From Eledone cirrhosa (taxonomy: Eukaryota), in NCBI GenBank assembly GCA_964016885.1, contig OZ024761.1, forward strand, positions 12,400,001 through 12,464,000: DNA of 64,000 bases, given 5' to 3'. The notes beneath the pieces are model-generated. The model did no database searches and had not been told where the DNA came from. It saw only the letters and a program-made list of their open reading frames with translations. The number at the start of each line of letters is the position of its first letter. Position 1 is the stretch's first letter. This document shows, piece after piece, positions 39,743-40,050 of this stretch. A program made the position numbers and the translations under genes.

Positions 39743-40050
39743 ATATATTAACAAATGGAAACTAGATTTATAAAACCATATTTATTTCATTATACATATT
39801 TCAAGGACACCAAGTTAAATTATGGTGTGCTTTCATCAGATAAAATATAATATAGAGCAGTTTTATAAATATCCGGGAACTTCCAACAGTAATGGTTGCA
39901 TTCTTTAAGGGTATGTCAATATTTATTTATAAAACTGCTCTATATTATATTTTATCTGATGAAAGCACACCATAATTTAACTTGGTGTCCTTGAAATATG
40001 TATAATGAAATAAATATGGTTTTATAAATATAGTTTCCATTTGTTAATAT
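39743..40050. mobile_element. Near-perfect fold-back module with two complete hammerheads (39784-39846 minus, 39949-40011 plus)
   Basis: About 130-bp arms with a ~50-nt spacer; each arm has attttat-CTGATGA-aagcacacca..tggtgtcctt-GAAA-tatgta-TA-atgaaat. Confidence 0.75.

Follow-up and report, generated by a model that had tools for sequence, protein, structure and literature searches.

Palindromic hammerhead modules in the (TA)n-rich, 3.0-Gb genome of Eledone cirrhosa follow an end rule: one arm stops at a short 3' end and its sister at a tailed 3' end. Among 183 classifiable non-redundant pairs, 176 combine a short and a tailed end, six are tailed plus tailed, and one is short plus short (binomial p 2e-43 against 50%). 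On sequence evidence, the modules are 5'-truncated Penelope-like retroelements in (TA)n, from three Hydra-clade families (A, B, and D) and one Neptune-like family (C). We consider it probable (roughly 0.7) that both DNA ends of one (TA)n cut would prime on one RNA, the short site serving one end and the tailed site the other, with the reservation that the counts here do not separate one RNA molecule from two RNAs of one source locus.

The layout of such insertions is already known, and the end-rule counts and sister concordance are what these data add. Formation of inverted and tailed Penelope-like insertions is stated as unresolved in the passages of PMC8557442 that treat it. Tens of thousands of young events in this genome provide countable rules that separate published models, namely one short and one tailed end per pair, sister arms of the same subfamily, no signal of conversion, and an arm geometry that argues against snap-back. 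An in vitro test is made direct by the intact ORFs together with a candidate start signal. Searches of openly accessible article texts turned up neither a tally of the end rule nor a single-template test or a doubled hairpin.

Inverted pairs in the window

The window is the whole 64,000-nt stretch analyzed here. An initial annotation had named ten places with inverted pairs, and self-comparison of the window recovered all ten. Both catalytic boxes are present in both arms at only three of them (22659, 31970, and 39743), and the 5' catalytic box is missing from both arms at 14561 and 22262. One-sided arm extension was seen at most of the named loci, the longer arm exceeding its sister by 69–97 nt. 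The unit at 39.7 kb has the following parts:

39653–39738, no strand: left (TA)n target tract, with two extra copies of the 8-nt short-end terminus inside
39739–39871, minus strand: inverted 5'-truncated arm of Hydra-clade family A, subfamily A2, to the short end (S); hammerhead complete, its CUGAUGA box running downward from 39839
39870–39871, no strand: inversion junction, 2-nt microhomology TA
39870–40144, plus strand: direct arm, beginning at the 5' boundary of the family, 123 nt upstream of G12, and reaching the tailed end (L)
39945–40013, plus strand: minimal type I hammerhead, with CUGAUGA at 39956, GAAA at 39993, and a palindromic short stem III
40055–40144, plus strand: 90-nt tail, from the short end (40054) to the tailed end (40144)
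40060–40084, plus strand: RCUC...GAGY-GCUU hairpin motif, 3' of the short end
40143–40222, no strand: right (TA)n target tract

The inverted arms align over 127 nt with one mismatch (39745–40050, self-comparison) and meet at the 2-nt microhomology. Each arm carries a minimal type I hammerhead, and in the direct arm cleavage is predicted after 40004 under the hammerhead numbering and cleavage rule. The unit extends past the span noted earlier, as the right arm continues for 90 nt to 40144 before (TA)n begins and the left arm has no such extension. In full-length copies, the counterpart of this tail sits directly upstream of the ORF start codon, and a second copy of the hairpin motif, found 3' of the tailed end in those elements, is absent from the 39.7-kb insertion. 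The last 6–8 nt of the two arms are unlike each other. None of the contigs of three runs spans the 39.87-kb junction. An altered terminus with extra terminus copies in the left TA tract (39653–39745) was seen in one of 67 subfamily A2 short ends, and the extra copies may reflect slippage after insertion or stuttering at initiation.

The other named pairs, to which no strand is assigned, are:

2669–2835: family D (Hydra) pair, the left arm ending early and the right arm tailed; a decayed core is confined to the right arm
14560–14759: family B (Hydra) pair, short + tailed; junction inside the hammerhead stem II loop
15374–15720: family A1 pair, tailed + tailed (an exception); left arm is tail only
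18857–19001: pair of a further family; full hammerhead in the left arm only
22261–22473: family B pair, short + tailed
22587–22963: family C (Neptune-like) pair, tailed + short; each arm with a U3-A8 hammerhead
27150–27472: A-related pair, read by eye; tailed left arm with hammerhead, right arm without core
27683–27880: family D pair, short + tailed
31881–32193: family A3 pair, tailed + short

Parent elements and families

Intact coding partners of the modules were found. The family A parent (L031) consists of an inverted truncated copy, a pLTR with hammerhead, a tail, an RT and GIY-YIG frame, a long 3' UTR, and a pLTR, in a unit of about 4 kb; twenty fetched family A elements have the same layout with open frames of 732–742 aa. 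As in EN+ Penelope-like elements, an ORF with a PLE-type RT plus a GIY-YIG nuclease at the C terminus is linked to the module, and the partial-tandem pLTR with hammerhead, the inverted 5'-truncated copy, and the tail are all present. Pfam gave GIY-YIG at E 0.00027, just under its cut-off, and no match for two RT fragments. The family A protein carries RWR (37), DKT (118), a CxCX5C linker, no CCHH inside GIY-YIG, and CxxC plus CxH (L342). Family B has RW and SDKT, with a linker and nuclease that look Hydra-like by eye, and family D has SDKT. These families are inserted in (TA)n, as is the Hydra clade, and those with 24,224 (B) and 8,151 (D) genome matches lead to Hydra-type frames. Family C appears to be a Neptune-like two-frame element with GLKF and DKG and with ORF1 in another frame about 1.1 kb upstream; its Zn-finger linker and the cysteines inside GIY-YIG were read by eye from the DNA. 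The Hydra and Neptune assignments are provisional, drawn from protein motifs rather than from an RT tree with reference proteins. Open frames of 738–751 aa (family A) and 775 aa (family C) are numerous, which suggests recent activity of both clades.

No hammerhead reached the Rfam gathering score, the minimal motifs having come from a pattern search; motif and U3-A8 covariation point to a type I identity. Families B and C use a U3-A8 core (e.g., window 22587–22963; L263, L170, and L351). In family B, both U3 and A8 are kept in 15 of 17 full cores as position 7 varies, which suggests selection on the ribozyme. The TTGAAAA word at 22.7 kb had been taken for a decayed core. It is instead the normal core of its family (124/128 copies, with about 11,900 in the genome), a U3-A8 covariant of the C3-G8 core pair. 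This core variant is known from Schistosoma Penelope hammerheads (PMC4209133).

The 5' ends of paired and solo copies cluster at a family-specific boundary in all four families, about 110–125 (A), 20 (B), 60 (C), and 22 nt (D) upstream of G12. The family B boundary falls inside the hammerhead, and many full-length copies extend past the boundary, which may mark a transcription start or an RT stop. Seven of 50 family A ORF-start loci (L302, L310, L311, L321, L324, L333, and L337) begin 83–94 nt downstream of G12, at a TCAGTT word within the tail. This word resembles the initiator consensus, and the site is a possible second start.

Two fixed ends, one of each per pair

Arms were mapped in 1.31 Mb of merged loci (257 stretches picked by exact motif matches, plus 170 kb of neighboring DNA), giving 730 arms. 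Each of the four families has two discrete fixed 3' ends, short and tailed, 69–97 nt apart. The outward orientation of ribozyme 3' ends into (TA)n described in the initial annotation holds well beyond its ten loci: across the 1.31 Mb and the window, 213 adjacent pairs are head-to-head and 13 tail-to-tail, and the outer flank is TA-like for short ends in 246 of 308 cases and for tailed ends in 290 of 343. From the 213 head-to-head pairs, two duplicates were dropped and 28 with an end at neither site were left unclassified, which yields the set above. The rule is obeyed in both clades. One of the six tailed-plus-tailed pairs makes up the 5' end of a full-length element, whose far end is short. 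Intact elements show opposite end kinds across about 4 kb in 10 of 10 cases (of 20) that have both an inverted copy and a far end. Many arms have no detected partner.

Arm geometry and junctions

Among the 176 short-plus-tailed pairs, the 5' ends of the arms lie within 15 nt of each other in 95, the 5' reach of the short arm is greater by more than 15 nt in 59, and that of the tailed arm is greater in 22; the tailed arm is tail only in 17. This geometry bears on self-priming, proposed in PMC3846280, in which a cDNA would snap back and copy itself, an endonuclease would trim one arm at the short site (trimming is put forward in PMC8557442), and later deletions would skew the center. We regard this explanation as unlikely. 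It accounts jointly for same-subfamily sisters and one-sided tails, it suits the 95 pairs with nearly coincident 5' ends, and some 5' boundaries seem by eye to coincide with the base of possible hairpins. Snap-back confines the copy to the span of its template arm, so this route cannot yield the 59 pairs with the short arm further 5', and the arms of the 17 tail-only pairs do not overlap at all. Full-length elements with a short far end bear a small tailed inverted piece, and junction homologies are mostly 0–2 nt rather than stem-length. To rescue snap-back, later central deletions would have to be frequent.

Junction mapping confirmed that junction points vary between copies, as had been pointed out for the window. 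Clean joins have a microhomology of at least 2 nt in 35 of 72 cases (11 expected), with a mean of 1.9 nt against 0.68 expected; these 72 were scored out of 178 joins, the other 106 having unmatched letters or a reference mismatch. Family C junctions (e.g., L134, L161, L163, and L190) contain 7–14-nt inserts, several of them copied from adjoining element sequence. Such inserts resemble products of polymerase theta end-joining or of RT jumps.

Sister arms and their template

At non-CpG subfamily marker sites, sister arms agree 790 times and disagree 30 times, against 326 disagreements expected at random. Linkage among the marker sites and the choice of loci by exact motifs mean that this ratio overstates the independent evidence. 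Family C markers stand at about 50:50, yet none of 22 is discordant between sisters. The initial annotation had proposed a single template, for example one primed twice at the same RNA 3' end. The markers uphold one template lineage per pair, and the same 3' end gives way to the two separate sites.

Alternatively, each subunit of an asymmetric protein dimer might copy its own RNA, both RNAs coming from one source locus. Arm overlap would then arise without strand displacement, and a dimer is predicted for a Poseidon protein (PMC11167929). The 30 discordant marker sites, six pairs with two such sites each, and the unlike arm termini at 39.7 kb also fit. This scheme seems improbable, as it calls for almost complete fidelity to the source in the presence of several subfamilies of similar age (compare the family C markers above), and the sister discordance of 3.7% is near the 2–6% mutational divergence of sisters.

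Substitutions private to the two arms of a locus, on which the initial annotation had relied, are not real. The words in question are common genome-wide, with thousands of copies: exact matches number 8,380 for the atgaaat 38-mer, compared with 2,613 for the ataaaat form presumed to be the norm, and 4,688 for the atagaat 37-mer. The 39.7-, 31.9-, and 22.6-kb loci have no rare shared variants (0 each). Over 127 columns, the right 39.9-kb arm matches five unrelated copies on another contig exactly, and its own sister differs from it by one change. In trees, arms do not cluster by side (15 label changes vs about 12 and 14 in shuffles), in keeping with the annotation, but they are not locus-private, the sister being uniquely nearest for 13 of 36 A2 arms and six of 42 C arms.

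Homogenization by intra-hairpin gene conversion, after independent insertion or divergence, had been offered as the other origin of sister likeness and is very unlikely. Of 105 pairs, 93 have a sister that beats the median non-sister, and in only nine does it beat both of the nearest ones. The same pairs hold 328 shared variants common elsewhere, 22 rare shared variants, and 151 rare unshared variants, with rarity judged on a scale short of the whole genome; a second count of rare variants gave 21 shared and 300 unshared. The 22 rare shared variants, along with some identical sister pairs, are what conversion would leave. Sister divergence is 3.65% in the 56 pairs with a spacer of at most 10 nt and 3.24% in the 49 with a longer spacer, with rare shared-to-unshared counts of 12:88 and 10:63, respectively. 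With so few rare shared changes and no rise in tight hairpins, later conversion is minor; from the 22 and 151, it would affect no more than roughly a fifth of mutations, with every rare shared change assigned to it. Rare shared variants show no RNA-editing signature in the form of an A-to-G bias (3 A>G and 5 T>C of 21). Across a distance of 4 kb, inverted copies match far ends as well (0–2 differences in 133), and conversion leaves the end rule unexplained. Compared with the adjacent and the far pLTR, inverted copies at first seemed to favor the far one, a preference that shrank to 3:2:1 in six elements on masked columns.

Fixed-end MITEs moved by a DNA transposase, which the initial annotation had likewise set aside, resemble the modules in being short, inverted, TA-flanked, and of high copy number, but can practically be dismissed, as no fixed pair of ends and spacer is shared, junctions and arm lengths vary, ends are unequal, and the arms are 3' ends of RT-coding elements.

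Hairpin motif at the putative start sites

Among family A read-through copies, 112 of 157 have the RCUC...GAGY-GCUU motif after the short end, with A-U as outer pair, and 21 of 30 have it after the tailed end, with G-C as outer pair. In family B, it follows the short end in 42 of 57; at the tailed end, it is present in three ORF-linked loci found by a motif-directed search and in two of seven under the strict pattern. Family D has the motif after the short end with a z of -2.0, where the short-end anchor of the pattern count matched no copies. Its tailed end carries the motif in three of five ORF-anchored loci, with an 89-nt loop and an imperfect outer pair; the loop exceeds the gap of the pattern, whose search there returned only a chance match. 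Family C lacks the motif (1/52 short and 0/5 tailed ends), yet obeys the end rule. Family E short ends gave 0/20 under the strict pattern and a looser match by eye. Fold energy is weak (z -1.0 at 40045–40090), and in family B the hairpin is not the minimum-energy fold. Given these weak folds, the hairpin is a candidate start signal.

Proposed mechanism

Under priming of both target ends on one RNA, the RT/GIY-YIG protein of the element would cut both (TA)n strands, and each 3'-OH would pair with a UA-rich site on the RNA. Where the two cDNAs overlap, the trailing one would displace the leading one, and their 3' ends would then be joined by microhomology and filled in. Sisters would keep the subfamily markers of the template and diverge later by ordinary mutation. 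In the Hydra families, the hairpin motif 2–8 nt 3' of each site may position each start. A fuller form of this scheme, to which we give an even chance, is programmed twin priming: a protein dimer would initiate a pair of cDNAs on one RNA from two fixed sites, each serving one target end, with the Hydra-clade sites set by two tandem hairpin copies. The tail would then be the distance between signals, and the palindrome would result from strand displacement rather than from fold-back or conversion.

Several observations sit poorly with the one-RNA reading. In vitro, no difference in start site between strands was seen (PMC11167929), so the one-per-side asymmetry is unexplained there. The six tailed-plus-tailed pairs, the many partnerless arms, and the differing termini at 39.7 kb are further difficulties, as is a hairpin that is weak in energy and absent from family C despite the end rule.

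Comparison with known systems

In the portions of Craig et al. (2021, PMC8557442) that describe them, Hydra-clade C-terminal EN+ elements resemble the families here in having a single ORF, RWR, DKT, CxCX5C, no CCHH in GIY-YIG, and CxxC plus CxH. They are also alike in the pLTR hammerhead, the (TA)n target, the inverted 5'-truncated copy, and the often one-ended tail. The same portions give units mostly under 3 kb and tails of 30–40 bp, whereas family A units are about 4 kb and tails here are 82–97 nt. Their Hydra-clade account, so far as it extends there, includes neither tens of thousands of very short fold-back copies nor counts of the end rule and sister concordance.

Anolis Poseidon protein in vitro cuts and extends both strands and starts at two internal sites bounding the tail (Frangieh et al. 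2024, PMC11167929), a behavior that the proposed mechanism fits, and an AT-rich target is common to both systems. In Poseidon, the start sites lie inside the ORF, at an AC-rich stem-loop, and show no strand preference; here they lie upstream of the start codon, at UA-rich ends, one per side. Adineta Penelope (Arkhipova et al. 2013, PMC3846280) likewise has head-to-head inverted pLTRs, one of them tailed, with junction overlap. That paper favors self-priming on an antisense template; the arm geometry here speaks against simple self-copying. In Schistosoma, as described in the relevant text of Cervera and de la Pena (2014, PMC4209133), opposite-strand hammerhead pairs 100–700 bp apart and U3-A8 cores are found, as here. 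Non-LTR retrozymes were rejected as an identity, since they require head-to-tail tandem hammerhead monomers (in the definition passage of bioRxiv 2026.07.22.740005) and the modules are head-to-head pairs.

The second priming site is fixed here, and the pieces usually overlap to give a palindrome, unlike in LINE-1 twin priming. There, both target ends prime on one RNA with inversion and microhomology at the join, the second primer lands at variable places, and the pieces barely overlap.

Other repeats of the window

A different repeat with (ATC)n ends also occurs as outward-facing inverted pairs (47275–47867, 57007–57479, 28282–28604, and 44978–45070), with a tRNA-like head in one pair at 57152 and a second head at 26198. 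More hairpin-like inverted repeats of other families lie at 15260–15349, 17323–17830, 19785–20093, 25910–25990, 32237–32323, and 43333–43422. Extra hammerhead-like motifs, some unpaired, adjoin TA tracts at 1840, 10133, 26087, 34092, 48152, and 54069.
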